Assembly: GCA_016183365.1 (NCBI GenBank)
Contig: JACPES010000005.1
Span: 5,895-69,894, forward strand
Reading direction: 5' to 3'
DNA: 64,000 nucleotides
Source of the DNA: Candidatus Collierbacteria bacterium
GTDB lineage: Bacteria; Patescibacteriota; Microgenomatia; UBA1400; JACPES01
This document shows, piece by piece, positions 2,962 to 54,366 of this stretch; positions within the stretch are counted from its first letter, which is position 1, and each line of letters begins with the position of its first letter. Below the pieces are notes generated by a model, which worked only from the letters and a program-made list of their open reading frames with translations, was not told the origin of the DNA and made no database searches. Both the position numbers and the translations under genes were made by a program.

Positions 2962-3341
2962 AACCGAAATCGAATCAATCGTACCCACTTCTGCCAAATT
3001 GACAGTTCTGTTTGTTTATTTTCTTCTTCACTTTGACCTTCACTCTGTTGCTCCGGCAACAAAATGACCGTCTCTCCCTCTTTTTGGAGCAACAGCTTTT
3101 CTCTGGCCATTTTTTCCACGTACTCGTCGGAGCGGTAATATTCCAACTGTTTTTTCAATTCCACTTCTTTAGCCTCTAAATCTTTCACCTCTTTTTGCAT
3201 TTTCCAGACCCGCTGTTTTTGCTGCCATAACTCTAAAATATTCCTGGAAGAACCATAAATGATAAATAGGCCAATGACAATAATGAACAGTTGGTAAAGA
3301 CGCCGCTTCATAATATTGATAATATACCCTTTTGCTTTCAA
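2958..3341 (-). CDS. septum formation initiator family protein (FtsB/DivIC-like)
   Basis: N-terminal TM (LYQLFIIVIGLFIIY) followed by a coiled-coil and a K/E-rich region. The true start may be the internal Met near 3311. Confidence 0.55.
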   Translation of the reverse strand: MKAKGYIINIMKRRLYQLFIIVIGLFIIYGSSRNILELWQQKQRVWKMQKEVKDLEAKEVELKKQLEYYRSDEYVEKMAREKLLLQKEGETVILLPEQQSEGQSEEENKQTELSIWQKWVRLIRFRF

Positions 3342-11297: not shown

Positions 11298-11825
11298 CTA
11301 TCGATGTCCCAGTGTGTAAAGTGTGTCTAAGTGATTAAATCCAATATTCTGCGGTAGTTTTTTGAAGAATTTAATCTCGGCTGTGTCATCGGCAGGCTTG
11401 GAAGGCCAGGCCTTTCCCGGAAAGGCCTGGCCTTTTTGATCTGGTTTGATGGTGCATCGATATACTAAGTCGACTACGTGACCGCGCGGATCACCGGTTA
11501 GATCGTCAAATGCTTCGGCCAACTTCACATTCTCAACTTTTATCCCCAATTCTTCCTTTGCCACCCGCTTAACGCAATTCATTAACGCTTCGCCTTTCAA
11601 AACAAAACTCCCCGGCAAATGCCAGTAGCCGGCAAACGGCAGCCTTTTGCGTTTGGTCAGCAATACTGCTTTGCTGTTAAGTTTCGCAAACTTCACATTA
11701 GCGGAAGTTTGCGAAACTTCTATATCTTGCTCAATCAGGAGATTCACGGCCACCCGCGGCGCGTATTTAAAACTTCTAAGAAACGTTTGAAAGGGAAGTT
11801 TCTTGGGATTCATATCAATAATCAA
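11298..11825 (-). CDS. NUDIX hydrolase
   Basis: Nudix box GEALMNCVKRVAKEELG (Gx5Ex7REUxEExGU). Carries two in-frame palindromic repeat insertions. Confidence 0.7.
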   Translation of the reverse strand: MIIDMNPKKLPFQTFLRSFKYAPRVAVNLLIEQDIEVSQTSANVKFAKLNSKAVLLTKRKRLPFAGYWHLPGSFVLKGEALMNCVKRVAKEELGIKVENVKLAEAFDDLTGDPRGHVVDLVYRCTIKPDQKGQAFPGKAWPSKPADDTAEIKFFKKLPQNIGFNHLDTLYTLGHR

Positions 11826-17238: not shown

Positions 17239-19302
17239 TTAGACGCTGCATTTTGACCAACCGCAGCTATGGCAAGTGACACAACCATTTTCGGCAATTA
17301 CCGCAGCTCCACACTCCGGACAGACGGCGGCGGGACCGGAGCCGGGACGCAAAGGCAAATGTTGAATGGCAGAATTTTCATTCGTCATTCGTAATTGGTC
17401 ATTCGTCATTGTATCCTTAGCAAGATTCAAAACCTGATCTTTTTTTGAGCCGTCTCTATAAATAGTAATCCCCTTGCAGCCGAGTTTCCAGGCCAGAATG
17501 TAGGCTTTTTCTACATCTTCAACAGTAGTATTATGGGGGAAGTTAATGGTTTTGCTGATTGAGTTATCAAAATGTTTCTGCCAGGCGGCCTGAATCTTAA
17601 CGTGCCACGATGGAGAAATCTCATGGGTGGTAACAAATATCTTATAAAACCAGCCGGGCAAACCTTCGATGGATTTTAATCCGTATTCCGCGACGTGTTT
17701 CAGAACACTCGGAAAACTCGGAGTTTCAGATAAATCAGAAAGTCGGAGAATCGGAAAATCAGAACTTCTGATCTTCTGATTTTCTGACTTTCTGACATTC
17801 CGGCTTTCCGAGTTTTCAGAGTTTTCCGAAATGACTCTCTTTAGTTCTTCTTCAAACACCGGATCGACCATATATATTTCCTTCGTCGGCCTATTTTTTC
17901 TATCGTCTTCAAAGAATGTTCGTCTTTTTGTGACCAACGAAAAAATCGGCTCTATCCCCGAAGTAGTGTCGGCGAGCATCGCCGTAGTCCCAGTGGGGGC
18001 AATCATGGTAGTAGCGCAGTTTCGCATCGGATGCTTGTCAAAATAAATACTCCTGTCCCAGTTGCCGAAGTTGCCGCGGACTTTGGCCAGTTTCATACTC
18101 TCATTTTGGGCAGTTTCCTGGATGAACTTTGCCAATTTTTCCGAAAGCTCCTCCGCTTGACTAGAGTTGTACGGAATACCTAATTTAACCAACATATGGG
18201 AAAATCCCATCACGCCTAATCCAATGCGGCGGTTGCCGTTTTTGACCATCTGCTCAATTTCGGGAATAGCATAGGTATTAACTTCAATCATGTCGTCGAG
18301 AAACCGGACCCCGAGACGGACGCTCTTTTCTAAGTCTTCCCAGTCAACTCCATTCATTGTTTCCTGTTTCTTGCTTCTTGCTTCTTTTATATGATTCTGC
18401 AAGCAAATACTTGTCAAATTGCAACTCTCGTAGGGCAAAAGTCCGATTTCGCCGCAGGGATTAGTCGCTTCTATCCGTCCAATTTGGGGAGTGGGGTTGT
18501 CGCGGTTAAAAGTATCCAAAAACATCAAACCCGGATCGCCGGTTTGATGGGCGTGGTCAACGATCATTTTGAATAATTTCCGGGCTTTTATCTTTCTCAC
18601 CGGCTCCCCGGTTCTGGGGTTAATTAAATTCCACATCTTATCCGCCTGAACCGCTTTCATAAATTCGTCGGTTACTCCAACGGAAATATTAAAGTTCTTG
18701 ATAGTGCCATCCTCGTCTTTAAGGCGAATAAAGTCTTCAATGTCGGGATGGTCGGCGTTTAAAATCCCGATGTTGGCGCCTTGGCGTTTGGCGCCCTGAA
18801 GAATTTTTGACAGGGCGGCGGAATAGGCGGCCAGAAAGTCCACCGGACCGGAGGCGGCGTTGGGGACATTTTTGACTTTGTCGCCGCGGGGACGGATGCG
18901 GGAAAAATTAAAGCCGGTGCCGCCGTTATTTTTATGGACGACGGCAGCGTCACCCAAGGTTTTGAAAATCGACTGAATGTTGTCTTCGACCGGAAGAACG
19001 AAACAGCTGCTCAATTGGCCGGTGCCGCCGGGGTTACCGGCCTCAAACATGGCCTTGCCGGCGCATACGAATTTGAAATTCACCATCCGGTCGTAAAAGG
19101 CGACGGCAATCTCGGCAACTTTCCCGTTTCCGCCATTCCAATTGACTTCGGCTTTAGCCATATGTCTGGCGACCCGCCACAGCATCTCTCCCGGAGTTTC
19201 GATGACTTTTCCGGACATATCGGTGCGGAGATAACGCTTCTGGGAAATCTTTATGGCAGTTGGTGATAGTTTTGGTTCGATGATAGTCATATGTATAGAC
19301 AA
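17239..19302 (-). CDS. nrdJ: class II ribonucleotide reductase paralog (no ATP-cone)
   Basis: SSCFVLP, ATNPCGEIGL, C-terminal CPECGAAVIAENGCVTCHSCGWSKC. Carries a ~135-bp in-frame palindromic element. Confidence 0.85.
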   Translation of the reverse strand: MSIHMTIIEPKLSPTAIKISQKRYLRTDMSGKVIETPGEMLWRVARHMAKAEVNWNGGNGKVAEIAVAFYDRMVNFKFVCAGKAMFEAGNPGGTGQLSSCFVLPVEDNIQSIFKTLGDAAVVHKNNGGTGFNFSRIRPRGDKVKNVPNAASGPVDFLAAYSAALSKILQGAKRQGANIGILNADHPDIEDFIRLKDEDGTIKNFNISVGVTDEFMKAVQADKMWNLINPRTGEPVRKIKARKLFKMIVDHAHQTGDPGLMFLDTFNRDNPTPQIGRIEATNPCGEIGLLPYESCNLTSICLQNHIKEARSKKQETMNGVDWEDLEKSVRLGVRFLDDMIEVNTYAIPEIEQMVKNGNRRIGLGVMGFSHMLVKLGIPYNSSQAEELSEKLAKFIQETAQNESMKLAKVRGNFGNWDRSIYFDKHPMRNCATTMIAPTGTTAMLADTTSGIEPIFSLVTKRRTFFEDDRKNRPTKEIYMVDPVFEEELKRVISENSENSESRNVRKSENQKIRSSDFPILRLSDLSETPSFPSVLKHVAEYGLKSIEGLPGWFYKIFVTTHEISPSWHVKIQAAWQKHFDNSISKTINFPHNTTVEDVEKAYILAWKLGCKGITIYRDGSKKDQVLNLAKDTMTNDQLRMTNENSAIQHLPLRPGSGPAAVCPECGAAVIAENGCVTCHSCGWSKCSV
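17701..17835. repeat. ~135-bp palindromic TIR element, in-frame within nrdJ-B
   Basis: CAGAACACTCGGAAAACTCGGAG...TTTCCGAGTTTTCAGAGTTTTCCGAA; translated as ENSENSESRNVRKSENQKIRSSDFPILRLSDLSETPSFPSVL. Confidence 0.8.
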
Positions 19303-19332: not shown

Positions 19333-21405
19333 TCATACCGAGCATTTACTCCATCCGCATTCCTGACAAGTTGCGCATCCATCCATCAACGTCAGTTCTC
19401 CCCTGCATTCCGGACACACTTCGTCAGGATTTCCTTTAACCGTTAACCTTTGACCTTTGACCTTCCCCACATTGAGCACTTGCTCTCTCCGGCAGCCGTC
19501 GCGATAAACCGTAATTCCTTTACATCCGGTTTCGAAAGCTAATAAATAAGCGTTTTTAATATCGTCGACTGTGGCCGAATTGGGCAAATTAATAGTTTTT
19601 GATACCGCCGCATCTGTATATTTTTGCCATGCGGCTTGCATTTTAATATGCCATCTGTAGGGAATTTCCATGGAGACACGGAAGATATCTCTTACTTCTT
19701 GCGGAATTTCTTTAATATTTTGGCAACTGCCGGACACAGAGACTCTCTCCAGAACACTCGGAAAACTTGGAACATCAGATAAATCAGAAGATCGGAGTTT
19801 CAGAGAACCAGAATTTCTGGTCGTCTGATTGTCTGATTTTCTGATTTTCCGGCTTTCAGAGTTTTCAGAGTTTTCTGAAATTACACCAACTGCTTTTGAA
19901 AATTCTTCGTTAACTTCTAGCAAACTCGTCTTCCCCAAATCTAAAATATTTTCCCTTCTGTACGCCAAGGCAAACAACGGTTCTATTCCACTGGAACAAC
20001 CGGCGATTATGGAAATAGTCCCGGTCGGGGCGACGGTGTTGACCGTTGAATTACGCATATGAGTGAAACCTTGCTTCTGCCAAACGCTATCTTCGAAAGC
20101 CGGGAAAGAACCACGACTTCTAGCCAGTTCCACCGAGGCGTCGCGGGCAGTATCATGGATAAATTTAGCGGTTTTTTTCGCTAGTTTCAACGCCGCTTCC
20201 GAGTCGTAACGAACCCCCAGTTTAATCAACATGTCCGCCCAGCCCATGACGCCGACGCCGATTTTTCTGGTGGTCAGGGCCATTTTTTTTAATTGGGGAA
20301 TCGGATAGTCGCAGAGGTCGATAACGTTGTCCTGAAAGTGAACCCCGAGACGGACGACCTCTTCTAATCGTTTCCAGTTGATTCTTTCCAGAACACTCGG
20401 AAAACTCTGAGAACCAGAGAAATCGGAATATCGGAGGATCGGAGAATCAGACGATCCGGCCTTCTGACTTTCTGATTTTCTGATATTCCGGCTTTCCGAG
20501 TATTCCGAGTTTTCTGAACTTACAAATCTTCCCAGGTTTATATTCCCCAAGTTGCATGACTCATACGGTAATAGGGCTTGTTCGCCACACGGGTTAGTTG
20601 CTTGATATATCCCTAATTTTGGCGTCGGACAATATTTATTCATGACATCTAAAAACACTAATCCCGGGTCGCCGACTTTCCAGGCCTGGGTGGCGATTAA
20701 ATTCCATAACTCCATCACGTCGATATCTTTTTCGGTGGCGCCGTCGTTGGGGTGAAATAAATGAATAGTCCCCTTTTTGGCTTTGACCTTTTCCATAAAT
20801 TCGTCTGTAGCCCCGACGCTGACGTTAAAATGGTAGAGCGTGGACGGATCTTCTTTGGACATAATAAATTCAACGATGTCCGGGTGATCAACCTTCAATA
20901 CTCCCATCAGGGCGGGGCGGCGGGCGCTGGCCTCGGCGATGGTGGCGGCGGAATAATTAAATAACCGCAGGAAAGAAACGGCGCCGGAACTGATGCCGCC
21001 GGTTGATTCCACCAAAGAACCCCGCGGCCTAAGATTTGTCAGCGGGATTCCAATCCCGCCGCCGGTCCGTAAAATCAGGGCCGCGTTGCGCAGTTGATCA
21101 TAAATATCTTCCAAGGAATCGGATAAAGGCAAAACATAGCAAGCCGAAAATTGTTTATGCTTGCGGCCGGCGTTAAGGAGGACCGAGCCGGAAAGATATT
21201 CCAAATTCGACATGGCCCGATAAAAATCATCGGCGACTTTTTTTATCTCCTGATCCGCTTTATCTCCCTTTACTCTTAGATATTTTTTGTCAGCCGACGC
21301 GATTAAGTTAGCTACCCGTCGGAACATCTGATCAGGGATTTCTTTTGGCAAAAGATAGCCGCGTTTTTTCAAAACTACCAAAGCGTTATCGGATAAATTT
21401 GTCAT
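19333..21405 (-). CDS. nrdJ: class II ribonucleotide reductase paralog (no ATP-cone)
   Basis: SACYVLP, ATNPCGEQAL, C-terminal CPECRGELTLMDGCATCQECGWSKC. Carries two in-frame palindromic elements. Confidence 0.85.
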   Translation of the reverse strand: MTNLSDNALVVLKKRGYLLPKEIPDQMFRRVANLIASADKKYLRVKGDKADQEIKKVADDFYRAMSNLEYLSGSVLLNAGRKHKQFSACYVLPLSDSLEDIYDQLRNAALILRTGGGIGIPLTNLRPRGSLVESTGGISSGAVSFLRLFNYSAATIAEASARRPALMGVLKVDHPDIVEFIMSKEDPSTLYHFNVSVGATDEFMEKVKAKKGTIHLFHPNDGATEKDIDVMELWNLIATQAWKVGDPGLVFLDVMNKYCPTPKLGIYQATNPCGEQALLPYESCNLGNINLGRFVSSENSEYSESRNIRKSESQKAGSSDSPILRYSDFSGSQSFPSVLERINWKRLEEVVRLGVHFQDNVIDLCDYPIPQLKKMALTTRKIGVGVMGWADMLIKLGVRYDSEAALKLAKKTAKFIHDTARDASVELARSRGSFPAFEDSVWQKQGFTHMRNSTVNTVAPTGTISIIAGCSSGIEPLFALAYRRENILDLGKTSLLEVNEEFSKAVGVISENSENSESRKIRKSDNQTTRNSGSLKLRSSDLSDVPSFPSVLERVSVSGSCQNIKEIPQEVRDIFRVSMEIPYRWHIKMQAAWQKYTDAAVSKTINLPNSATVDDIKNAYLLAFETGCKGITVYRDGCRREQVLNVGKVKGQRLTVKGNPDEVCPECRGELTLMDGCATCQECGWSKCSV
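19751..19880. repeat. palindromic TIR element copy 1 in nrdJ-C
   Basis: CCAGAACACTCGGAAAACTTGG...TTTCAGAGTTTTCAGAGTTTTCTGAA. Confidence 0.8.
20391..20520. repeat. palindromic TIR element copy 2 in nrdJ-C
   Basis: CCAGAACACTCGGAAAACTCTGAG...TTTCCGAGTATTCCGAGTTTTCTGAA. Confidence 0.8.
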
Positions 21406-21744: not shown

Positions 21745-22015
21745 CTAAAGCTGTGCTGCTATATCAATGATTTTAATTAGTACGGACGGATCTGACGGCA
21801 AACAGGCAGGATTCTCCGACGTGTGAAGTTTACGAAACTTCACAATTGCTAATTTCTTGTCCGCAACCTTTCTGACTAATTTTTCATCGGCAGAAACCAA
21901 TATGGCTTTAGCGGCTTTGGCCAAAGTCTGGCGGGAACTATCGTATGCCGACAACTGATATTTTTGGACTAAAGTCAAACATGTTTTATGTTCGTCGGCT
22001 ATCGAGCAGAAAATC
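21745..22015 (-). pseudogene. truncated PIN-domain (VapC) paralog fragment carrying a hairpin-repeat insertion
   Basis: Protein and DNA (aaagtcaaacat..ttcgtcggctatcga) are similar to the C-terminal third of the intact VapC at 23398..23832. It lacks the N-terminal catalytic region and contains a GTGAAGTTTACGAAACTTCAC insert. Confidence 0.45.
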
Positions 22016-33829: not shown

Positions 33830-36355
33830 ATGGCGAAGACAAAACCAAGGAAGAAGGTAGAAAGTAGAAGAAAGAATGATAAGAATAAATCACTATTATT
33901 GTGGCAAAAATTTAAAAAATTTGCCTTTACTTTTGAATTGACACCGGAGAATATCCGGAGATCGTGGACTCGAAAAGGGCTAAGGGCCAAGGGCCAAGGG
34001 CCAAGGGCCAAAACTCGCCGCCGATTTCTTATTTACTCATTAGTATTTATTAGTTTATTCGTAATTATTAGTATTTATTTATTACGGGATATTCCCTCTC
34101 CAACCAAACTCGCTTCCGGCAACTTTCCGGTTTCGACTCAAATTTTCGACCGCAACGGCCAACTGTTGTACGAAATTTACGCCGACCAGAACCGGACGCC
34201 GATTAAACTTAAGGATCTGCCGCCGTTTGTCTTGCAGGCGACGATTGCGATTGAGGACAAGAATTTTTACCGGCATTTTGGGATTGATATTTTTGGAGTC
34301 GCCCGGGCGGCGGTGAAAACCCTGACCGGACAGCGGCTGGAGGGCGGATCGACGATTACCCAGCAATTGGTCAAAATGACGCTGTTGACGCCGGAGCGAA
34401 GTTTGAGCCGGAAAATTCGGGAGGCGGCGCTGGCGGTAGCGACGGAAGTTTTATATTCTAAAGATCAAATATTGGAGATGTATTTGAACCACGCGCCTTA
34501 CGGCGGAACGGCTTATGGAATCGAGCAGGCAGCCAAAAGATATTTTGGCAAAAGCGCCAAGGATTTGAGTTTGCCGGAGGCAGCCCTTCTGGCAGGATTG
34601 CCGCAGGCGCCATCAGCGTATTCGCCATTCGGGTCGCGGCCGGAGAACGCCAAACAACGGCAAAAAGATGTGTTGCGGCGGATGAAAGAAGATAGATATA
34701 TCACTTCCCAGGAAGAGAGGGAAACGGAAGAGGCGGTTTTGGAATATTCTACTGCGAATATTCCGATTCGGGCGCCACATTTTGTGTTATGGATAAAGGA
34801 TTTATTGATTGAAAAATTCGGCCAAAAAACAGTAGAGGGTGGAGGATTAAGTGTGACAACAACGCTGGACTTGGCGATTCAAGAAATGGCTCAAGCCAGC
34901 GTGTCAGCCGAGGTAAAAAAACTAAAAAGTTTGCGGGTGGGCAACGGAGCGGCGTTGGTCACCAATCCGGGGACCGGAGAAATTTTAGCGATGGTGGGGT
35001 CAAAAGATTATTTTGATACGGAAAACGACGGCAATGTCAATGTGACAATTCGGCCGCGCCAACCGGGATCCTCCATTAAGCCCGTTATGTACGCTGGCGG
35101 TTTTTCGACCGGAAAACTTACTCCCTCCACTATGTTGATTGATGCGCCGACCTGTTTCAGAGTTCTCAACCAACCGGATTATTGTCCCCAAAATTATGAC
35201 GGTCAGTCCCATGGTCCGGTTCAAATCAGGTTTGCTCTGGGCAATTCTTACAATATTCCGGCGGTAAAATCCCTGGCATATATCGGCCTGGAGGATATGA
35301 TCGCGACGGCGTCGGCAATGGGAATCTCGACTTTTACCGATCCCTCCCGCTATGGTTTGTCGTTAACCTTGGGCGGCGGAGAAGTTACTATGTCCGATAT
35401 GGCCACGGCTTTTGGAACCCTGGCAAATAACGGGGTAAAAGTGCCGCTAAACCCGTTTTTGAAGATAGAAAATTATAGAGGAGAGGTTTTATACCAACGG
35501 ACTACGGAGGAACGACTAAATGATCTTCGGAACACTCAGAATACTCAGAAAGCCAGAGAATCAGACAATCAGAAATTCGGAGAATCAGAGTCTCTGGACT
35601 TCCGATCCTCAGATTCTCTGATAATCCGGTCCTCTGAGTTTTCCGAGTTTTCTGAAATCATCCAGGCTATTCCGGCAGAAGCAGCATACTTGGTCAGTCA
35701 TATTCTCCTGGACAATAACGCCCGGACCGCCGCATTTGGGCCGAGTTCGCAACTGGTAATACCGGGGCAAGTGGTTTCGGTAAAGACCGGAACTACCAAT
35801 GACCTTCGGGACAACTGGACTTTGGGGTACACCCCGGAACGGCTAGTGGCGGTATGGGTGGGAAATAATGATAATAAACCAATGAACCAAGCTCTGGTTT
35901 CTGGCATCACCGGGGCAGCGCCGATTTGGCACAACATCATGAGACAACTGCTATGGAGTCGAAGGCCTATTTGGCCGGAAAGACCGGAAGGGGTGGTCGG
36001 AAAAGATGTCTGCGTTCTGACCGGTCTCTTACCGACGCCAGGAAATTTATGCGATACTCGGCATGAATTTTTCTGGGATAAGTTCTTGCCCGCGAATAAT
36101 TATCCCCTCCAACGGGAGATCTGGATTCGCAAAGATACCGGGACGCCGATTGATCCCAATATTCCGCTGGACCAGCAAGGAGAGTTAGAATTGCAAAACC
36201 ATACGGTTATTTCCGACCCGCTGGTGCCGGAATTCTGTTTGGACTGCGCGTATCCGGTAATTCAGGAGTTAAATCCCGACGGATCGGTGAAAGAGGAGCG
36301 GATCAATTACCCCGGGTCGGTGATTAACACTACGTCATTGCGAGCCCCGCCGTAG
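33830..36355 (+). CDS. class A penicillin-binding protein (transglycosylase + transpeptidase)
   Basis: EDKNFYRHFGIDIFGVARA, GGSTITQQLVK (GT51); SIKP, SYN, KTGT transpeptidase motifs. Contains a ~135-bp in-frame repeat, and its stop codon lies inside a repeat. Confidence 0.85.
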   Translation: MAKTKPRKKVESRRKNDKNKSLLLWQKFKKFAFTFELTPENIRRSWTRKGLRAKGQGPRAKTRRRFLIYSLVFISLFVIISIYLLRDIPSPTKLASGNFPVSTQIFDRNGQLLYEIYADQNRTPIKLKDLPPFVLQATIAIEDKNFYRHFGIDIFGVARAAVKTLTGQRLEGGSTITQQLVKMTLLTPERSLSRKIREAALAVATEVLYSKDQILEMYLNHAPYGGTAYGIEQAAKRYFGKSAKDLSLPEAALLAGLPQAPSAYSPFGSRPENAKQRQKDVLRRMKEDRYITSQEERETEEAVLEYSTANIPIRAPHFVLWIKDLLIEKFGQKTVEGGGLSVTTTLDLAIQEMAQASVSAEVKKLKSLRVGNGAALVTNPGTGEILAMVGSKDYFDTENDGNVNVTIRPRQPGSSIKPVMYAGGFSTGKLTPSTMLIDAPTCFRVLNQPDYCPQNYDGQSHGPVQIRFALGNSYNIPAVKSLAYIGLEDMIATASAMGISTFTDPSRYGLSLTLGGGEVTMSDMATAFGTLANNGVKVPLNPFLKIENYRGEVLYQRTTEERLNDLRNTQNTQKARESDNQKFGESESLDFRSSDSLIIRSSEFSEFSEIIQAIPAEAAYLVSHILLDNNARTAAFGPSSQLVIPGQVVSVKTGTTNDLRDNWTLGYTPERLVAVWVGNNDNKPMNQALVSGITGAAPIWHNIMRQLLWSRRPIWPERPEGVVGKDVCVLTGLLPTPGNLCDTRHEFFWDKFLPANNYPLQREIWIRKDTGTPIDPNIPLDQQGELELQNHTVISDPLVPEFCLDCAYPVIQELNPDGSVKEERINYPGSVINTTSLRAPP
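35526..35662. repeat. palindromic TIR element in-frame within PBP gene 1
   Basis: GGAACACTCAGAATACTCAGAAAG...GAGTTTTCCGAGTTTTCTGAA; translated as RNTQNTQKARESDNQKFGESESLDFRSSDSLIIRSSEFSEFSE. Confidence 0.8.
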
Positions 36356-36788
36356 GCGGGGCGTGGCAATCTAAAGTCATTGCGAGCGACCGGAGGGAGC
36401 GCGGCAATCTAAAAATTTGATGCAAGAACAGTCCTTCTGTGTTTATTTGATGAGCAATCCCGGCAGAACGGTACTTTATACCGGTGTAACCCGAAACTTG
36501 ATAAAACGGGTATGGCAACATAAAGAGAAAGTCGCTGATGGTTTTACCAAGAAATACAATGTTACCGATATGGTCTATTACGAAATCCTTGATTCACCGA
36601 TTGAAGCAATCGAACGCGAAAAGCAAATTAAGAGTTGGTCGAGAAAAAGGAAAAATCGCTTGGTAGAAGCGGAAAATTCTTCATGGAAAGATTTATACGA
36701 TGAAATCGTATCATGGTGAGTAATGCAAGAGGGATGACGCTAAAGCGTCAGATTGCCACGCCCCGCCGGTAGCGGGGCTCGCAATGAC
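36344..36788. mobile_element. GIY-YIG gene cassette bounded by ~39-bp terminal inverted repeats
   Basis: Left GTCATTGCGAGCCCCGCCGTAGGCGGGGCGTGGCAATCT (36344-36382, plus a second partial tandem copy 36377-36410). Right AGATTGCCACGCCCCGCCGGTAGCGGGGCTCGCAATGAC (36750-36788) is its reverse complement. Confidence 0.65.
36417..36719 (+). CDS. GIY-YIG nuclease family protein (YhbQ/Slx1-like small form)
   Basis: FCVYLMSNPGRTVLYTGVTRNLIKRVWQHKE is a GIY-YIG motif; 100 aa. Confidence 0.7.
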   Translation: MMQEQSFCVYLMSNPGRTVLYTGVTRNLIKRVWQHKEKVADGFTKKYNVTDMVYYEILDSPIEAIEREKQIKSWSRKRKNRLVEAENSSWKDLYDEIVSW

Positions 36789-36797
36789 GATACTTCT

Positions 36798-37094
36798 CTA
36801 GGCTTTTTCAACCAATTCATAGGCCTTTTCTTCTGTCAGCTTATCTAAATTAATTCCCCGCTTTTTGGCCCAGCGGCGGCCGACTTTTTTGCCTGCTGCC
36901 ATCATTCGGTCAAACCGCAGCCTCCACATTTTCTCTTTTGCCTGCTCGGTTTCCAGAATTCGTCTATAAGACAGCAGTACCGCTTCCGGGACGCTATCTC
37001 GAACAATTACTACCGAAGTATCCTGTTGGGAAACATCGGCCACTAATCTGCTCAAGTTATTTCTGGCATCGGTGATACTGACTATCTGTTGCAT
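36798..37094 (-). CDS. Phd/YefM-family antitoxin (no cognate toxin adjacent)
   Basis: N-terminal ISITDARNNLSRLVADV...VVIVRDSVPEAVLLSY matches the Phd/YefM pattern. Confidence 0.55.
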   Translation of the reverse strand: MQQIVSITDARNNLSRLVADVSQQDTSVVIVRDSVPEAVLLSYRRILETEQAKEKMWRLRFDRMMAAGKKVGRRWAKKRGINLDKLTEEKAYELVEKA

Positions 37095-37292: not shown

Positions 37293-39665
37293 ATGGACAG
37301 AAGGCGCCGCCGCGTTGGTTTTGACGTAGATGTTTTTTCCGGATTCAGGTTATTAGGTAAACCCCTTTATTACTTTCTATTTTTGGCGCTGCCATCCGGC
37401 ATTCTTTTAATTACCAGTCTTGCCGCTAGACTAAAAACTAATTCCCAAAAATATTCAAAAGGGGCCATCAGGAAAACCCGCAAGACTGCCAAACGGCTTG
37501 GTTTTCCAAAAATTGTTATTCCAAAAATTTCATTGCCGCCTATATCGATTTTCTATGCCGCAATTTTTTTATCTATTATTGGCATTCTATGGATGTTTTA
37601 TTTTTATATCTTCAAAGATCTTCCCACCCCTTATGATTTAAAAAAACACCAGCCAAAACTCAGTACCCATATTTTGGACCGCAATGAACAAGAGCTGTAT
37701 AAAATCTATAAGGACGAAAACCGGTCATTGATAAAAATAGATGAGCTCCCGTCATACTTAATTGACGCTACGGTTTCTATCGAAGATAAAGAATTTTGGA
37801 ATCATGCGGGTTTTTCACCCACTGGCATCATTCGAGCAATTTACCACAATTGGTTTATCTCCTTAGCCCTTAGCCCTAGACCCTCGACTCTTGCTACGCA
37901 GGGCGGATCTACCATCACCCAACAGCTAATAAAAAATACATTGTTAACTCCGGAAAAAACTATAAGACGAAAGGTGCGAGAATTAATTCTGTCCGTATGG
38001 GTAGAACGGGTATTTTCTAAAAAAGAAATTTTGGAAATGTATCTTAACGAAGTAAGCTTTGGCGGCACGGCTTACGGAATCCAGGAAGCCTCACAACAGT
38101 ATTTCGGAAAGAATGCCGTCTCCTTATCACTGGCTGAAGCCGCTTTATTAGCCGGTTTACCGGCCGCTCCGACCGCCTATTCTCCTTTCGGAATCAACCA
38201 AGGAAAAGCTAAAGAACGACAAGCCGATGTTTTAAGGAGGATGGCAGAAGACAAAAATATTTCTGCGGAATCAGCGGAAGAAGCCCTAAGGGAAGAACTT
38301 AAATTTTCCCAAAATTCGACCAATATTAAAGCCCCGCATTTTGTGATGTACGTCCGCGACTGGTTGGCTTCAAAGTTTGGAGAGGATATGGTAAACAACG
38401 GCGGCCTTAAAGTTATTACCACTCTTGATCTGGATTTACAGGAATTTGTTCAAAAAACGGTAACTGACGAAGTAGCCAGCCTAAAAAAATTAAAGGTTAC
38501 CAATGGAGCGGCGTTAGTGACTGATCCTAAAAGCGGGGAAATCTTGAGCCTGGTAGGTTCCCAAAATTATTTCGACTTTCAACATGACGGTCAAGTCAAC
38601 GTTGTTTTCCGTCCGCGCCAACCGGGATCGTCCATTAAGCCCATAATGTACGCTGCGGCATTCCAGAAAGGTTTTACCCCGGCCTCGGTGATTCTCGACG
38701 CCCCGATATCTTTTTCAACTCCCGGTTCTAAACCATACAGTCCGGTTAATTACGATGGTAAATTTCATGGCCCGATCCCAATTAGGACCGCTTTAGCCAG
38801 TTCTTACAATGTTCCGGCAGTTAAAGTTCTGTCAACTATCGGAGTTAATATTATGATAGATCAAGGAGAAGCCATGGGGATAAACACCTGGGGCGACAGA
38901 AAAAGGTTTGGTTTATCGCTGACTTTGGGTGGCGGAGAAATTACCATGGCAGATATGGCGGAAGCATACGGAACGATAGCAAATTATGGGGTCTATGTTC
39001 CGCTAAATCCAATACTCAAAGTTGAAAATAGTCAGGGAAAAGTGTTGTTTCAGAAAACTCCGAATAGTCAGAATGTCGGAACGTCAGACAGTCAGACAGT
39101 CGGAAATTCTGATTCTCAGATTTTTCCGAGTATTCCGAACAGGGCTATGCCCGCCGGAGTAGCTTTTCAATTAATTGATATCTTGTCTGACCCGATCGCC
39201 CGAGCTCCGGCATTCGGGACCAGATCAGTCTTAAATATCCCTGGCCATCAGGTGGCGGTTAAAACCGGCACTACCAATAATCTTCGGGACAACTGGACAT
39301 TCGGCTTTACGACTGACTTCGTAGTATCTGCCTGGGTGGGCAATAACGATAATTCTCCGATGAGCTATATTGCTTCCGGAATTACCGGGGCATCTCCGAT
39401 TTGGTCAAGAATTACCCAAGGCATTTTAAGCCAGAGAAAAACTCCGCACGTCTTTCCCCAACCCCAAGATTTAGTGACTATAAAAATCTGCGCTCTAACC
39501 GGACAATTAGCATGCGAAGATTGTCCGGTCCGGGAAGAATTTTTTATTCCCGGGACTGAACCCAAAACCGCCTGCCGTCCGGAGACGATCGATGAAATCA
39601 GACGCAAACAGGAAGAATCAAAAAATAAAGACCGGATTCTGGATGGGGCTGCCTCCAGACGCTAA
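37293..39665 (+). CDS. class A penicillin-binding protein paralog
   Basis: EDKEFWNHAGF, GGSTITQQLIK; SIKP, SYN, KTGT. Contains an ~80-bp in-frame repeat (39061-39140). Confidence 0.85.
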   Translation: MDRRRRRVGFDVDVFSGFRLLGKPLYYFLFLALPSGILLITSLAARLKTNSQKYSKGAIRKTRKTAKRLGFPKIVIPKISLPPISIFYAAIFLSIIGILWMFYFYIFKDLPTPYDLKKHQPKLSTHILDRNEQELYKIYKDENRSLIKIDELPSYLIDATVSIEDKEFWNHAGFSPTGIIRAIYHNWFISLALSPRPSTLATQGGSTITQQLIKNTLLTPEKTIRRKVRELILSVWVERVFSKKEILEMYLNEVSFGGTAYGIQEASQQYFGKNAVSLSLAEAALLAGLPAAPTAYSPFGINQGKAKERQADVLRRMAEDKNISAESAEEALREELKFSQNSTNIKAPHFVMYVRDWLASKFGEDMVNNGGLKVITTLDLDLQEFVQKTVTDEVASLKKLKVTNGAALVTDPKSGEILSLVGSQNYFDFQHDGQVNVVFRPRQPGSSIKPIMYAAAFQKGFTPASVILDAPISFSTPGSKPYSPVNYDGKFHGPIPIRTALASSYNVPAVKVLSTIGVNIMIDQGEAMGINTWGDRKRFGLSLTLGGGEITMADMAEAYGTIANYGVYVPLNPILKVENSQGKVLFQKTPNSQNVGTSDSQTVGNSDSQIFPSIPNRAMPAGVAFQLIDILSDPIARAPAFGTRSVLNIPGHQVAVKTGTTNNLRDNWTFGFTTDFVVSAWVGNNDNSPMSYIASGITGASPIWSRITQGILSQRKTPHVFPQPQDLVTIKICALTGQLACEDCPVREEFFIPGTEPKTACRPETIDEIRRKQEESKNKDRILDGAASRR
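39061..39140. repeat. short copy of the palindromic TIR element in PBP gene 2
   Basis: GTCAGAATGTCGGAACGTCAGACAGTCAGACAGTCGGAAATTCTGATTCTCAGATTTTTCCGAGTATTCCGAAC. Confidence 0.65.
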
Positions 39666-44184: not shown

Positions 44185-45216
44185 TTACTTTACCACTTCC
44201 AACACAGACTTGAAAATATTTTCCGCCGTCATTTCATACCTTTCCAATAATTCTCCCGCCTCTCCTGATTCTCCGAAACAATCCTTCATCCCGACTCTTT
44301 TTATCGGGACAGGACAAAATTCAGACAAAACTTCAGCCACCGCCCCACCCAAACCTCCTGTAATCTGATGTTCTTCCACCGTCACCACCCGGCCGGTTTT
44401 GCGGGCGGATTTGACGATGGTCTGGACATCGAGCGGCTTAATGGTGGAAACGTTGATAACTTCTGCAGAAAGTGGACTACTAAAATGGTTAGAATGGCTA
44501 GAATGGTCAAAATGGCTAGAAGCCCGCAACTTATCTTTATAACCATTTAAGCCATTTAAACCATTGTAACCATTTTGTAGCGCTTCTGCCGCTTTTATCG
44601 CCTCATACACCAACGGCCCGCAAGCCACAATTGTAACGTCTGTTCCTTCTTTCAATATTTCGGCTTTTCCGATCCGAAAAGGGATATCGCGATGGCAAAA
44701 AACTGGCGTTTTTTCCCGAGTCAGGCGAATGTAAATCGGACCCTTGTTTTCCGCCGCCGCTAGGGTTGCCGCCCGGGCCTGATTATAATCGGCCGGAACC
44801 AGAACTGTCATATTCGGCAACACCCGAGCCAAAGCGATATCTTCCAATCCTTGATGGGTAGCCCCGTCCGGCCCATTAGATAAGCCGGAATGCCCGCCGA
44901 TGATTTTGACATTAAGATTTGCATAACAAATTGAAGCCCTAATCTGCTCCCAATTCCTCCCCGGATTAAAAACTGCAAAACTGGTTATAAAAGGAATAAA
45001 TCCCTCTGCCGCCAGCCCGGCGGCAATTCCGGCCATATTCTGCTCGGCTACTCCGACTTGAATAAATCGATCCGGAAATTGTTTGGCAAAATCAGTTACC
45101 TTCAAACTTTCACCTAAATCCGCCGTTAAAACCACCACTTGACGGTCGGTTTTCCCCAATTCCACCAAAGCCTCTCCAAAACCGTCTCTTGTCGCTTTCA
45201 TATCATTACTTTTCAT
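44185..45216 (-). CDS. transketolase C-terminal subunit (pyrimidine-binding + C-terminal domains)
   Basis: GVAEQNMAGIAAGLA, PDGATHQGLEDIA; with an in-frame NGYNGLNGLNGYK...HSSHSNH repeat-derived insert. Confidence 0.8.
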   Translation of the reverse strand: MKSNDMKATRDGFGEALVELGKTDRQVVVLTADLGESLKVTDFAKQFPDRFIQVGVAEQNMAGIAAGLAAEGFIPFITSFAVFNPGRNWEQIRASICYANLNVKIIGGHSGLSNGPDGATHQGLEDIALARVLPNMTVLVPADYNQARAATLAAAENKGPIYIRLTREKTPVFCHRDIPFRIGKAEILKEGTDVTIVACGPLVYEAIKAAEALQNGYNGLNGLNGYKDKLRASSHFDHSSHSNHFSSPLSAEVINVSTIKPLDVQTIVKSARKTGRVVTVEEHQITGGLGGAVAEVLSEFCPVPIKRVGMKDCFGESGEAGELLERYEMTAENIFKSVLEVVK

Positions 45217-46156
45217 AGATCCCCGGAAATCCTTCCCCCAATGTCCTTAGCCGATTAAGTTCTGCCAAAGCCTCTACCGCCTGACCCTTTTCCATCGGCG
45301 GAATCCCATGCCAATTTGGCATATTTTCCATAAATGCAACGCCTTTTCCCGGAATAGTATTGGCCATAATCCACACTGGCTTTCGATGGATACTTAAATC
45401 AAAATCTAAAGCATTTGAAATCTCCTGAAAATTGTGACCATTGATAGACAAAACATGGAAACCAAACGCTCCCAGTTTTTCCGCCAGTGGTTCCAATGGC
45501 ATTATTTCTTCTGTGAATCCGCCGATTTGGATATGATTTCTATCGGTAATAAAAGTCAGATGATCCAAATTATTTTTGGAAGCGAACATCGCCGCTTCCC
45601 AAGTTTGCCCTTCCTGTAACTCGGCATCGGAGGTGAAACAAATGACACGGGGGAGATGAACAAGAGAATGGCTAGAATGGTTAGAATGGCTATAAAGGTT
45701 TTTTTCTTTCTGACCATTTAAACCATTGTAACCATTTTTAACCATTTCCTGTTTTTTTCTCACCGCCATCGCTACTCCGACTGCCGTGCTCACTCCCTGA
45801 CCCAATGGACCGGAAGTATTTTCTATCCCCGGGGCGCTTCTGAAATGCGGATGACCTTGTAGTCTGGAATTAATCTTTCTAAAAGTCAGCAGTTCTTCTT
45901 TCGGAAAATAACCGGCATGAGCTAAAGCCGCATACCACACCGGACAAATATGACCATTGGATAATATAATTCTATCCCGATTTTCATCCCACGGATTTTT
46001 CGGATCAAGATTCAGCTTACCCCCGAAATAAACAGCGGTAAATACATCCGCCATTCCCAAAGATCCGGCAGAATGACCGGAACCGGCGGAGACAAGCATT
46101 TTAATTACGTCTTGTCTAATTTCGTTGGCCTTGTCTTGGAGTTCTTCGAGAGTCAT
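45206..46156 (-). CDS. transketolase N-terminal subunit (TPP-binding)
   Basis: GHSAGSLGMADV, ILSNGH, GPLGQG; with an in-frame NGYNGLNGQ...HSNHSSHS insert. Confidence 0.8.
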   Translation of the reverse strand: MTLEELQDKANEIRQDVIKMLVSAGSGHSAGSLGMADVFTAVYFGGKLNLDPKNPWDENRDRIILSNGHICPVWYAALAHAGYFPKEELLTFRKINSRLQGHPHFRSAPGIENTSGPLGQGVSTAVGVAMAVRKKQEMVKNGYNGLNGQKEKNLYSHSNHSSHSLVHLPRVICFTSDAELQEGQTWEAAMFASKNNLDHLTFITDRNHIQIGGFTEEIMPLEPLAEKLGAFGFHVLSINGHNFQEISNALDFDLSIHRKPVWIMANTIPGKGVAFMENMPNWHGIPPMEKGQAVEALAELNRLRTLGEGFPGIYEK

Positions 46157-48533: not shown

Positions 48534-49277
48534 TCATTCGTATGTCATTTGCAGATTAGTATCGCTATCAACACATTCTAGCAACTTTTTGACTTTTTCC
48601 CAACTCACCTGTTCAAACTGTCGATAATAAATCCCTACCGTCCCCAAGTAGGGATCTTTATGAAGAATCACAACTTGATCCGCTACCTGTCGCAACATAT
48701 CCGCCGCTTCGGTTGAAGCCACCGGCAAACCAACGATTATTTGATAAGATCTAACCTTGCCGTACGGAAAGGTTAGATCTTTTTTGACTGATTTTTGGAT
48801 CCCTTTGAGCGCGGCCATCATCGAAATTCCCGTCGCCGCCCCGTCGTCAACTAAAACAATATTTCCCGATTTTGGCGGTCTGATGTTTTTGGTAATTCCG
48901 ATTTTTCTTATATATTCTGATATTTCAATCTTTTTGTCATCTATCTGCTGTTTTTGCCATTCTTTATCCAGCCGCCAGCGTCGCAATATCTCTTTATTCC
49001 ACCAAACTACAATATCCGGCCGCAAAGTTTGGGAAGTTTGCGAAACTTCCCATTTCGGAATCTCCGCCACCGCCCCGACAGCAAACTCCGGATTTCCCGG
49101 GGCGCCAACCTTTCTGACGATCAACGTTTCAAGCGGCGATTCCAAAATTCTGGCGACTTCAGCCGCCACCACGACTCCACCCCGAGCCAAGCCGAAAACT
49201 ATATCCGGACTAATTCCCCGCCGCTTTAACTCTTCCCCCAACAGTATGCCTGCCTGTGACCGCGAATCAAATACCAT
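48534..49277 (-). CDS. phosphoribosyltransferase-domain protein
   Basis: PRPP-binding VLVDDGAATG and GLARGGVVVAAEVA motifs. Contains an in-frame GGAAGTTTGCGAAACTTCC hairpin insert. Confidence 0.55.
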   Translation of the reverse strand: MVFDSRSQAGILLGEELKRRGISPDIVFGLARGGVVVAAEVARILESPLETLIVRKVGAPGNPEFAVGAVAEIPKWEVSQTSQTLRPDIVVWWNKEILRRWRLDKEWQKQQIDDKKIEISEYIRKIGITKNIRPPKSGNIVLVDDGAATGISMMAALKGIQKSVKKDLTFPYGKVRSYQIIVGLPVASTEAADMLRQVADQVVILHKDPYLGTVGIYYRQFEQVSWEKVKKLLECVDSDTNLQMTYE

Positions 49278-51365: not shown

Positions 51366-51466
51366 TTGGTTGCAAATTTATTAATTATTAAATTGTTATA
51401 TTGCTAAATTTGTTCCGGTACAATCAGCAATTTAACAATCTAGCAATGTAGCAATGTAGCAATTTT

Positions 51467-51691
51467 TCATAGTGGCCAAATTTTCTTGCCGCTTTCATCA
51501 TAAACTTCAATCGCTGCCGTCGGACAGCTCTGGGCGGCCAATAAAATGGCATCGTCCGCATCCTTATCCCCGGTTGATTTGATAACCACCGCTTTGTTTT
51601 GGCTATCCAATTTAAATGTTTTTGGGGCTACGGCCACACAACTGGCGGCGCCGATGCATTTGTCACGCAAAACTTTGACAGAATAAGACAT
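51467..51691 (-). CDS. ferredoxin (single [3Fe/4Fe-4S] cluster type)
   Basis: 74 aa with CIGAASC...CP cysteine pattern. Confidence 0.6.
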   Translation of the reverse strand: MSYSVKVLRDKCIGAASCVAVAPKTFKLDSQNKAVVIKSTGDKDADDAILLAAQSCPTAAIEVYDESGKKIWPL

Positions 51692-52515: not shown

Positions 52516-52911
52516 TTATATTGCTACATTGCGAATCGCTTTTTGCAAAGCAACAAGCGGTAGGATAGCACATTTAATTCTAGCATGAGAGATGTCGCCG
52601 CCAAGCAACTCGACCATGCCAGCTTGACTTATTTGACTAATTTGGCTAATGCGCCGAATTTGCTTGACCCTTTCCGACAGGAGCGACGCTCCGGCAGTGC
52701 TTATGGCGCACCCTACTCCTCTCCAGGCAATTTCGCCAATCTCTGTTCTCTGTTCTCTGTTCGCTGATCTCTTTACTCTAACCTGAAACTCAATCAAGTC
52801 TCCGCAGCTGGCGTTGGCTTCTTGGACGACAGCATCGGGATTTTTTAACTCACCGAAGTTGCGGGGGTGTTGATAGTGGTCGATGATGAGATCGTGATAG
52901 ATGTTGGACAT
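52516..52911 (-). CDS. sufU: SUF-system NifU/IscU-like scaffold (SufU)
   Basis: NASCGD and GCAIS cysteine motifs. Has an in-frame ISQISQISQ insert from a tandem 9-mer. Confidence 0.75.
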   Translation of the reverse strand: MSNIYHDLIIDHYQHPRNFGELKNPDAVVQEANASCGDLIEFQVRVKRSANREQRTEIGEIAWRGVGCAISTAGASLLSERVKQIRRISQISQISQAGMVELLGGDISHARIKCAILPLVALQKAIRNVAI

Positions 52912-52986
52912 TGTTAGATTGTTAGATTGTTAGATTGTTTTTGTTAACAATCCAGCAATTTAGCAATGTAGCAATTTTACTCGACA

Positions 52987-54366
52987 TTAACCGAATATTT
53001 TCGGTATTAAATTTAAAGCTTTGATAAATCGGTTGATATCCTCTTTCGTATTGTAAATCCCAAAACTTACTCTGGTGGTTGCCGCTAAGCCCAATTTAGC
53101 GTGCAGCGGCATGACGCAGTGGTGGCCGGAGCGGACGGCGATACCTTGGCTATCTAAAACCTGGGCCACATCATGGCCATGGATTTCTTTGCTGTTAGCG
53201 CTCAAGGTAAATGCAACTAGTCCACTTCTGTCTTGCGCATTTTTTGGGCCAAGAATGTTTATTAATAACCCGTCATTCCGAGCAAGGAGTCTGCGACGAG
53301 CCGACCCGCCCGCCTCGCTACGCGAAGCGTTGCGGGCAGGGGAATCTAGCGAAGCGATCAAATGTCTGGTCAATTCTATCTCGTGTTTTCTGATATTTTC
53401 CATTCCGATTCCCTGCAAATATTTGACTGCTGCCGCCAGTCCTACAGCGCCGGCGACGTTGGGGGTGCCGGCTTCAAATTTATCGGGTAAACCGGTAAAG
53501 GTCGTTTCCTGCCAATCTACGGTATTTATCATCCCGCCGCCGGTTAAAAACGGCGGCATGTTCTTCAGAATTTCTCTTTTTCCCCAAAGACACCCGATCC
53601 CCATCGGGCCATACATTTTATGCCCGGAAAAAGCGTAAAAATCGCAGCCCAAGTCTTTGACGTTGACCGGCGTGTGGGGAACGGCCTGGGCCCCGTCGAC
53701 TAGCAATAAGGGGTAAGAGCTAAGGGATAAGGGTTGAAGGAAACGCTTGTTTTTTGTCCCGCGGAGCGGGATCCTGCTTTGCAGGATTTTTTGTTTTTTG
53801 ATCATTTCCGCAATTTTTTTAATCGGATTTATCGTTCCCAAAAAATTGCTGACGTGGACGACGGAAACGAGTTTAGTTCGAGGAGAAAGTTTACGCTTCA
53901 AATCCAAAATATCCAGCTTGCCGTTTTTATCTACTTTAATATATTGAAGCGTGGCTTTTTGCCGCTCGGCAAGCATTTGCCAGGGAACTAAATTGCTGTG
54001 ATGTTCCATTTCTGAAATCAGAATTTCGTCTCCGGCGTTGACGTTCTGCCTACCCCAAGAGTAAGCGACCAAATTAATGGCTTCGGTGGAGTTGCGGACA
54101 AAAATTAATTCATTAGGATCTTTGGCGCCGATGAAACCGGAGACGGTTTTTCTGGATTCTTCATATAATCTGGTTGACTCATCACCTAAAGTATGAATGC
54201 CGCGGTGAACATTGGCGTTGTGATTCCAGTAATAATCGACCACCGCGTCAATCACTTCTTGAGGCTTTTGGGAAGTGGCGGCACTATCCAAATAGACTAA
54301 CGGTTGACCATTTATTTGACGATTAAAAATCGGAAAATCTTTTTTTATTAAATTTATGAACTTCAT
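52987..54366 (-). CDS. sufS: cysteine desulfurase SufS (class V aminotransferase)
   Basis: FSGHKMYGPMGIG PLP-lysine motif and HHCV-like region RSGHHC. Two GC-rich in-frame inserts. Confidence 0.85.
   Translation of the reverse strand: MKFINLIKKDFPIFNRQINGQPLVYLDSAATSQKPQEVIDAVVDYYWNHNANVHRGIHTLGDESTRLYEESRKTVSGFIGAKDPNELIFVRNSTEAINLVAYSWGRQNVNAGDEILISEMEHHSNLVPWQMLAERQKATLQYIKVDKNGKLDILDLKRKLSPRTKLVSVVHVSNFLGTINPIKKIAEMIKKQKILQSRIPLRGTKNKRFLQPLSLSSYPLLLVDGAQAVPHTPVNVKDLGCDFYAFSGHKMYGPMGIGCLWGKREILKNMPPFLTGGGMINTVDWQETTFTGLPDKFEAGTPNVAGAVGLAAAVKYLQGIGMENIRKHEIELTRHLIASLDSPARNASRSEAGGSARRRLLARNDGLLINILGPKNAQDRSGLVAFTLSANSKEIHGHDVAQVLDSQGIAVRSGHHCVMPLHAKLGLAATTRVSFGIYNTKEDINRFIKALNLIPKIFG

Follow-up and report, generated by a model that had tools for sequence, protein, structure and literature searches.

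A GIY-YIG nuclease gene between inverted hairpin repeats in Candidatus Collierbacteria: a very probable member of the Ssn family of single-stranded DNA endonucleases

Introduction

The genome of Candidatus Collierbacteria assembly GCA_016183365.1 carries, on contig JACPES010000005.1, a small GIY-YIG nuclease gene that lies between inverted repeats, and the stop codon of the upstream penicillin-binding protein (PBP) gene falls inside the left repeat. The question raised by this locus is whether it represents a minimal mobile cassette or homing element, as was proposed in a sequence-only reading of the DNA, or a nuclease and its recognition repeats forming a system of another kind. A stretch of 64,000 nt around the locus was analyzed (termed the window; positions given below are window positions). 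The comparisons show that the locus very probably consists of an Ssn-family single-stranded DNA (ssDNA) endonuclease gene, ssn, together with cognate repeats of a variant class.

The Ssn system has been characterised in Neisseria meningitidis (Chenal et al., Nat Commun 2025, PMC11893778). The meningococcal SsnA is a 94-aa single-domain GIY-YIG protein (CDD cd10448) which binds the NTS repeat CGTCATTCCCGCGMAVGCGGGAATCYRG solely as ssDNA and on one strand only, and which cuts a few nt 5′ of it. Cleavage is abolished by the substitutions Y6A, Y17A and E64A, and is kept when the hairpin loop is removed or extended. In Neisseria, the Ssn system reduces transformation by NTS-containing DNA. Related repeats, termed SRMs, are found near the gene in 71% of homologues and on both sides in 42%; only 2% of Neisseria NTS are intragenic, and Rickettsia is listed among the SRM-rich genera. 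The same authors liken NTS-ssnA-NTS to an insertion sequence and compare it with RAYT/REP, without a demonstration of mobility (PMC11893778).

Results

Gene order and repeat units

The gene order at the locus is PBP1A, unit A, unit B, ssn and inverted unit C, such that two forward units (A and B) precede the gene and one reverse unit (C) follows it (Table 1). The repeat in the window has the form GTCATTGCGAG-variable hairpin-GCAATCT. Unit A displays an unpaired 5′ CGTC, a basal stem of ATTGC/GCAAT and an apical G+C hairpin. Its DNA fold has a value of −14.3 kcal/mol (z = −4.4), and that of unit C is −14.6 kcal/mol (z = −4.1); the predicted fold of unit B is weak. Units A and C match at 36 of 40 positions, and the mismatches are confined to the apical loop.

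The sequence-only reading had described 39-bp terminal inverted repeats in exact reverse complement. An inverted pair is indeed present, but it is 90% complementary over 40 nt, and the left repeat, which had been placed at 36344–36382, is at 36334–36372, i.e. 10 nt lower. The second tandem copy up to 36410 (unit B) and the inverted copy at 36750–36788 (unit C) are where that reading had put them, as is the enclosed GIY-YIG open reading frame (ORF) at 36417–36719, in which the ATG at 36420 gives the 99-aa NCBI protein. The PBP stop codon inside the left repeat was also correctly seen. The last six residues of PBP1 and its TAG stop (36353–36355) come from unit A, which covers the final 7 codons and the stop, with the TAG in the apical loop, and the protein ends in ...SLRAPP (the C-terminal end reads ...GSVINTTSLRAPP, then the stop).

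The repeat units are real and not chance occurrences. ATTGCGAG-N5-35-GCAATC occurs five times in the window versus 0.00 expected (100 shuffles), and GTCATTGCGAG with no more than one mismatch occurs six times versus 0.7 expected. An Rfam search of the repeats at gathering and E-value thresholds matched no family, and a literature text search for the motif sequence gave coincidental primer matches only.

Table 1. Positions of the ssn locus, the repeat units and other features in the window.
Feature	Position	Strand	Remarks
PBP1A gene (PBP1)	33830–36355		Class A PBP
Unit A	36333–36372	+	CGTCATTGCGAG-CCCCGCCGTAGGCGGGG-CGTGGCAATCT; 39-nt left repeat at 36334–36372
Unit B (tandem second unit)	36376–36410	+	GTCATTGCGAG-CGACCGGAGGGAGCGC-GGCAATCT; starts three bases after unit A
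ssn gene	36420–36719	+	99-aa single-domain GIY-YIG nuclease; ATG at 36420, ORF list starts at TTG 36417
Unit C (inverted)	36750–36789	−	Minus-strand reading CGTCATTGCGAG-CCCCGCTACCGGCGGGG-CGTGGCAATCT; right repeat at 36750–36788
Phd/YefM-type antitoxin	36798–37094	−	Orphan
PBP2 gene	37293–39665		Class A PBP
Repeat variant in sufS	53272–53347	+	sufS on minus strand; compensated arms GTCATTCCGAG...GGGAATCT, long interior
Second insert in sufS	53712–53796		sufS residues 191–219
Solo repeat in membrane-protein ORF (60530–62266)	61127–61173	−	In-frame read-through ...RLPRHPSTSLGLLAMT...
Solo repeat in the same ORF	61276–61311	+	In-frame read-through ...SLRGNVSDRGNL...
Second repeat family	14673–14776, 17692–17836, 19741–19885, 20380–20524, 35518–35662, 39053–39140, 60871–60997		Imperfect palindromes
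25-nt palindrome	11675–11699, 21822–21846, 49030–49054, 61705–61729		TGTGAAGTTTCGCAAACTTCACA
Short arrays	44473–44585, 45665–45747, 51375–51482, 52901–52978		8–9-nt periods
tRNA-Met	1611–1685	−
Group I intron match	2053–2228	+	Rfam RF00028

The GIY-YIG protein

The Pfam domain PF01541 (E = 2.3e-15) spans residues 7–79 of the 100-aa ORF and there is no further domain. An entry of identical 99-aa sequence exists at NCBI, where it is named a GIY-YIG nuclease family protein of Candidatus Collierbacteria. Across 25 aligned homologues, residues Y10, Y21, G23, R31, H35, E68 and N87 are invariant; these provide the catalytic Tyr/Tyr/Arg/His/Glu/Asn set and include the Arg and Glu (R31 and E68) that the sequence-only reading had singled out as a check. 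The spacing of Y10, Y21 and E68 (11 and 47 positions) is that of Y6, Y17 and E64 in the meningococcal SsnA, which are the Tyr of GIY, the Tyr of YIG and a metal-binding Glu.

The AlphaFold model displays one compact GIY-YIG fold (pLDDT 92.5), and the nearest solved folds are UPF0213 BH0048, which is the nearest PDB match, Slx1 and the UvrC N-terminal domain. A PDB sequence search with the window protein found no close relative of solved structure. NCBIfam gave no specific model, only sub-threshold UvrC-like and DEDD matches, and PADLOC found nothing when run on the nuclease and the neighbouring antitoxin. By tblastn there is a single ssn copy in the 64-kb window; a second GIY-YIG match at 3096–3272 is weak, lies within a coiled-coil ORF and was set aside as spurious.

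Relatives of ssn in other phyla

A homologue scan, with one genome per species, returned 80 loci whose proteins are 46–59% identical to the window protein. These are from Saccharibacteria, Nitrospirota, Chloroflexota, Bacteroidota, Omnitrophota, Cyanobacteria, Proteobacteria, Firmicutes, Planctomycetota and several lineages of the Candidate Phyla Radiation (CPR). At about half of the 80 loci, ATT[GC]CGAG precedes the gene on the coding strand and the complement of this motif follows it, both within approximately 100 nt. The units collected, 163 in number, have the form GTCATTGCGAG-variable-(A/G)(A/C)GCAATCY with interiors from 9 nt (CGAAGCGAA) to about 70 nt, which are often nested palindromes. 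When both repeat classes are counted, an SRM lies within 150 nt of the gene at 53 of 75 homologous loci (71%), and SRMs upstream in forward and downstream in reverse orientation are found at 30 of the 75 (40%). These fractions match the published 71% and 42% (PMC11893778).

The published degenerate SRM pattern, HGTCWYN(0-2)YYVSBRHN(0-5)WNVSBRGN(0-2)RNCYNB, is a search heuristic and not a definition. Canonical units, e.g. CGTCATTCCCGCGAAGGCGGGAATCCAG, are recovered with it at 19 of the 80 related loci, inverted around the GIY-YIG gene. Inverted flanking units that match it are present at loci L045, L066, L075, L084, L046 and L059, and those of the first three also fit the 28-nt NTS consensus. 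Proteins from other phyla that have canonical NTS flanks are 46–55% identical to the window protein; the L045 protein displays 52% identity over 97 aa in a gapless alignment (E = 6e-37). The window units share CGTCATT...AATCY and the fold with NTS.

Hairpin structure and its variation

All orthologous units fold in the manner of NTS, i.e. with an unpaired CGTC, a basal stem that starts from ATT (ATTGC/GCAAT), an apical part and an unpaired 3′ tail. Covariation is seen at the fourth arm position: of 153 units, 147 have ATTGC/GCAAT (G..C), six have ATTCC/GGAAT (C..G) and none is mixed. Since the covariation is without exception, the hairpin itself appears to be under selection.

Between lineages, the arms of approximately 11 nt are conserved and the apical hairpins are replaced by different palindromes. 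The apical hairpin of unit A reads CCCCGCC/GGCGGGG in the window; L001 has TCCCGAT/ATCGGGA and L095 has GTTC../..GAAC. Unit B has shrunk to GTCATTGRCAATCT in relatives, and a collapsed unit reads GTCATTGGCAATCT. The left and right units are alike in the window, whereas in L001 and L095 their interiors differ and only the outer arms of about 11 nt are common to both sides. Thus the near-perfect 39-bp inverted repeat is a feature of the window lineage and not a requirement of the element. It was probably produced by conversion between units.

Repeats within coding sequences

Three of the six window units are found away from the locus and within genes. One of the two in the membrane-protein ORF, at 61276, had been read as an in-frame relative extending to 61353; it is in frame as claimed, but is shorter, and it falls at a gap in the homologues of the protein. 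The other, on the minus strand at 61127, had been overlooked. A 61%-identical homologue (P0241) has the same residues encoded by the arms of this unit and an interior that is five aa shorter. The variant that had been placed at about 53243–53335 does lie inside sufS, at the somewhat different position given in Table 1. It is in frame and encodes ...DSPARNASRSEAGGSARRRLLARNDG..., which represents an extra segment of the window SufS (residues 337–368) inserted between residues 319 and 329 of the solved SufS 8d8s. The PBP1 of L001 ends in SLRGVPM.

The window SufS has a second in-frame insert relative to solved structures. Its DNA, AATCCTGCAAAGCAGGATCCCGCTCCGCGGGAC, displays two hairpins and is similar to an NTS-type unit of the canonical form that has decayed and lies in reverse orientation.

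The pattern GTCATTGCGAG-N10-35-GGCAATCT matches at least 120 viral or proviral contigs of IMG/VR. Among 80 of these virus-classified contigs that were examined (L101–L180), only L149 has an ssn homologue, which shows that solo repeats are common on virus-classified DNA.

History of the locus

All loci of close relatives that carry ssn have it at the same PBP1 site, and wherever the cassette occurs its left junction has the same sequence, ...ACG/TCATTGCGAG. Downstream of the cassette the arrangements vary: PBP1-ssn-PBP2 is found in L095–L099, PBP1-ssn-PIN/antitoxin in L001–L010 and L100, and PBP1-ssn-Phd-PBP2 in the window. L091 has the PIN gene directly after PBP1 and is without ssn. In L093, a more distant relative that serves as the outgroup, PBP2 follows 45 nt after PBP1 and there is no cassette.

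A neighbour-joining tree of PBP1, made from one short segment of 669 nt and without bootstrap, has the form ((window,(L095,L098)),(L091,(L100,L001))) with L093 and L092 outside. L091 is thus nested among cassette-bearing lineages. Compared with L001, L091 lacks a segment that has CGGCG...CGGCG(G) at its boundaries and takes in 27 nt beyond the right SRM which are also present in L095. Since these 27 nt are missing as well between the CGGCG sequences, the loss is better explained by a microhomology deletion than by excision at the repeat ends. The nesting of L091 and the 27 nt outside the right repeat also led us to reject the interpretation of L091 and L001 as an empty and an occupied site with a 5-bp CGGCG target duplication. 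Of the PBP 3′ ends without the cassette, which the sequence-only reading had suggested be sought, that of the outgroup L093 is one and that of L091 is better explained as a later deletion. No target-site duplication or direct repeat is found around the window cassette.

The simplest history is one insertion at the PBP1 3′ end after the L093 split, followed by vertical inheritance and a single loss in L091. In its appearance the cassette is a selfish element that has been domesticated or moves very slowly, and that entered an ancestor of this Collierbacteria clade. The earlier idea of a mobile cassette is therefore supported in part, as history and not as present behaviour, and for past movement the support is indirect.

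Several observations bear on movement of the cassette. Synteny between the window and L095 stops 9 nt past the GTCAT of unit C; from this we infer only that synteny would end no more than 2–3 nt from a cut of the meningococcal SsnA type, if the offset is conserved. Third-codon identity is 0.71–0.79 in ssn versus 0.53–0.60 in the adjacent PBP1 for the same lineage pairs, and L001 and L100 have identical sequences over the cassette and past it. L084, from Bdellovibrionales, has two cassettes 2.5 kb apart that share 403 bp at 85% identity, and the homology stops 7–10 nt outside the SRMs; L066 has a tandem duplicate. Such cassette duplicates were seen in unrelated genomes only. In other CPR genomes, ssn relatives of 62–66% identity adjoin L7/L12 or thyX. 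An identical ssn protein (P0020) on four contigs seemed to lie in different contexts; it is really one locus with or without an IS200-type insertion.

Neighbouring genes and other features

The orphan Phd/YefM-type antitoxin gene between the ssn cassette and PBP2 is convergent with ssn and has no toxin partner. As a hot spot for small selfish genes, the spacer on the right side of unit C holds Phd, a PIN toxin with its antitoxin, or nothing. The two tandem class A PBP genes are paralogous, approximately 50% identical in their C-terminal part, and relatives, the outgroup among them, have kept the pair. Contig L221, from a related aquifer population, displays an IS200/IS605-type Y1 transposase gene (positions 1072–1794 of that contig) inserted downstream of its ssn cassette at a distance of about 500 bp; L222, otherwise 98% identical, is without it.

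A second repeat family consists of imperfect palindromes of about 130–145 nt with 8-nt periods of the TCTGA/TCGGA type. Copies in PBP1, PBP2 and the membrane-protein ORF are read through in frame, e.g. SESLDFRSSDSLIIRSSEFSEFSE, and the copy in the latter falls at a gap in the homologues of that protein.

The palindrome of 25 nt listed in Table 1 recurs four or five times and may be an operator or a terminator. The short arrays with periods of 8–9 nt (AATGGYTAGAATGG..., CAATGTAGCAAT...) are at least in some cases intergenic, including stretches that flank the suf genes. The group I intron match scores 66 bits, which is above the gathering score, and adjoins tRNA-Met; ARAGORN found no tRNA containing the intron.

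Discussion

Assignment to the Ssn family

Membership of the window protein in the Ssn family is made very probable by comparative evidence, i.e. by homology, by the flanking motifs and by their orientation. The locus is assigned to Ssn with a variant class of SRM because the protein is homologous to NTS-flanked proteins, the fractions of loci with repeats match the published ones, the residue spacing and hairpin fold are the same, and the arms covary. Some findings weigh against this assignment. The published SRM pattern has no match in the 64-kb window, and the minimal unit of the second class has little predicted stability alone. Half of the window units (3 of 6) are wholly in coding sequence and unit A overlaps the PBP1 end and stop. 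Since only 2% of NTS are intragenic, the genomic behaviour of these repeats differs from that in Neisseria.

Cleavage of ssDNA by the window protein, its cut positions and its biological role are inferred here by analogy with the characterised enzymes. In the proposed mechanism, the locus would produce a stand-alone, site-specific GIY-YIG ssDNA endonuclease whose gene is flanked by its cognate SRMs. Each SRM is a DNA hairpin in which an unpaired 5′ CGTC precedes the ATTGC/GCAAT basal stem, a variable hairpin forms the apex and CT is the 3′ tail. By analogy with the Neisseria and Wolbachia enzymes, the protein may bind the single-stranded hairpin on the CGTCATTGCGAG...GCAATCT strand during replication, repair or DNA uptake and cut a few nt 5′ of it. 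Units A and B would accordingly be read on the top strand, unit C on the bottom one, and the predicted cuts lie just beyond the two cassette ends. More SRMs are scattered in the genome, with several tolerated in frame within genes. The biological role, judged from the characterised systems, would most likely be to modulate recombination or incoming ssDNA.

Alternative explanations

The cassette could be an autonomous, active mobile element in which the GIY-YIG protein acts as transposase or homing nuclease, the 39-bp repeats are the ends, and the solo SRMs are non-autonomous derivatives comparable to miniature inverted-repeat transposable elements. A single nuclease gene bracketed by inverted repeats is what such an element would look like, and the Ssn authors themselves remarked on the likeness to an insertion sequence (PMC11893778). 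The absence of the cassette from the outgroup, with its PBP1-PBP2 gap of 45 nt, the 62–66% identical relatives at unrelated loci, the whole-cassette duplicates in L084 and L066, and the solo SRMs inserted in frame in genes are all consistent with movement. The higher third-codon identity of ssn than of PBP1 points the same way, but the synonymous conservation could also be due to constraint or local recombination, and the L001/L100 identity extends past the cassette. Against present activity, the PBP1 junction is identical in all close relatives with the gene, the window cassette has no target-site duplication, and there is one ssn copy in 64 kb. L091 lost the cassette together with 27 nt between microhomologies and not at the repeat ends, and the long inverted repeat is not conserved, as is seen in the differing interiors of L001 and L095. 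Further, the characterised Ssn enzymes do not cut double-stranded DNA (dsDNA), and no strand-transfer activity has been described for them (PMC11893778). We therefore regard an active element as unlikely. An ordinary insertion sequence or transposon with terminal inverted repeats is ruled against by the lack of a target-site duplication, by presence/absence boundaries that are off the element ends, by the single copy and by the fixed site. What stands of the cassette or homing element first proposed is the repeat-gene-repeat architecture and the dispersed and in-frame copies; a homing endonuclease or a demonstrated transposon it is not.

It is very unlikely that the hairpins are RNA-level or transcriptional elements (a terminator, attenuator or stabiliser) for PBP1, ssn or the antitoxin, with an incidental link to the nuclease. 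Stable hairpins are indeed present at the PBP1/ssn boundary and at the convergent ssn/Phd boundary, but neither unit is flagged by the terminator scan, the stems lack a following T-run, and there is no Rfam family match. The motif is also found in frame inside ORFs, its pairing with the gene and its fixed orientation recur across many phyla, and the characterised SsnA binds its motif as ssDNA and does not bind RNA (PMC11893778). To a chance inverted repeat or an assembly artefact we attach almost no probability. The shortness of the conserved arms is the one point that could be cited for it, and it is refuted by the shuffle controls and by the presence of the same architecture in independent assemblies from several samples and in 80 genomes.

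A broader proposal is that SRM-ssn-SRM is a distinct class of ssDNA-based mobile element that employs a GIY-YIG nuclease and is analogous in function to IS200/IS605 and RAYT/REP, with the solo SRMs as miniature derivatives. We consider this doubtful. It is kept in view because cassettes have been duplicated elsewhere, the outgroup is without one, synonymous divergence is lower in ssn than in PBP1, and synteny breaks near the predicted cut. If true, the solo SRMs would land in frame in essential genes of reduced CPR genomes, and the repeats would retain their 11-nt arms as their interiors are rewritten.

Comparison with known systems

The locus most closely resembles Ssn/SsnA, the family to which we assign it. 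Common to both are a stand-alone GIY-YIG protein of about 95–100 aa with the same catalytic residues and spacing, a gene bracketed by oriented hairpin repeats that start with CGTCATT and end with AATCY, and dispersed solo repeats in the genome. The differences are in the arms (ATTGC/GCAAT in the window, ATTCCCGC/GCGGGAAT in NTS), in the length of the units (35–76 nt with a GAG bulge and a variable nested apical hairpin, versus 28 nt), in the many copies inside coding sequence, and in the host, which is of the CPR/Patescibacteria, a group absent from the main text of PMC11893778.

RAYT (TnpA-REP, an IS200/IS605-like Y1 transposase) and its REP/BIME/REPIN sequences likewise combine a nuclease gene that has inverted hairpin flanks with dispersed copies. 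That enzyme recognises ssDNA hairpins and is typically encoded by one gene copy that is vertically inherited and domesticated. However RAYT is an HUH tyrosine nuclease, unrelated in fold and chemistry to the GIY-YIG hydrolytic nuclease here, and REPs are extragenic whereas copies in the window occur in frame within genes and are tolerated there.

Rickettsia palindromic elements (RPE), reportedly described by Ogata and colleagues in 2000, are short palindromes situated in frame in protein genes and translated as extra segments. They are about 100–150 bp in length, thus longer than the window units, and resemble these in description, as in-frame palindromic repeats that are translated in genes. 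GIY-YIG homing endonucleases of the I-TevI type share the catalytic domain and a packaging like that of selfish elements. Unlike these enzymes, which have a separate DNA-binding domain, cut dsDNA and are located in introns or as free-standing phage genes, the window protein consists of the catalytic domain only, and there is no intron (Rfam) or intein context at the locus.

Implications

The assignment places a CPR bacterium, Candidatus Collierbacteria, among the hosts of the Ssn ssDNA-nuclease system, which was described only recently. The repeat class GTCATTGCGAG-variable hairpin-GCAATCY is widespread and flanks ssn genes in many phyla. Because the published pattern misses this class, Ssn-associated repeats may be under-counted in surveys outside Proteobacteria. 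Odd peptide tails and inserts in annotated CPR proteins, e.g. the terminal SLRAPP of PBP1, ...LLAMT and ...ARNDG, are explained as translated repeats. The Ssn enzyme family has been proposed as an ssDNA tool, and the natural variation of these repeats, with fixed arms, one compensated position, swapped apical hairpins and one collapsed unit, represents a ready-made experiment on specificity.

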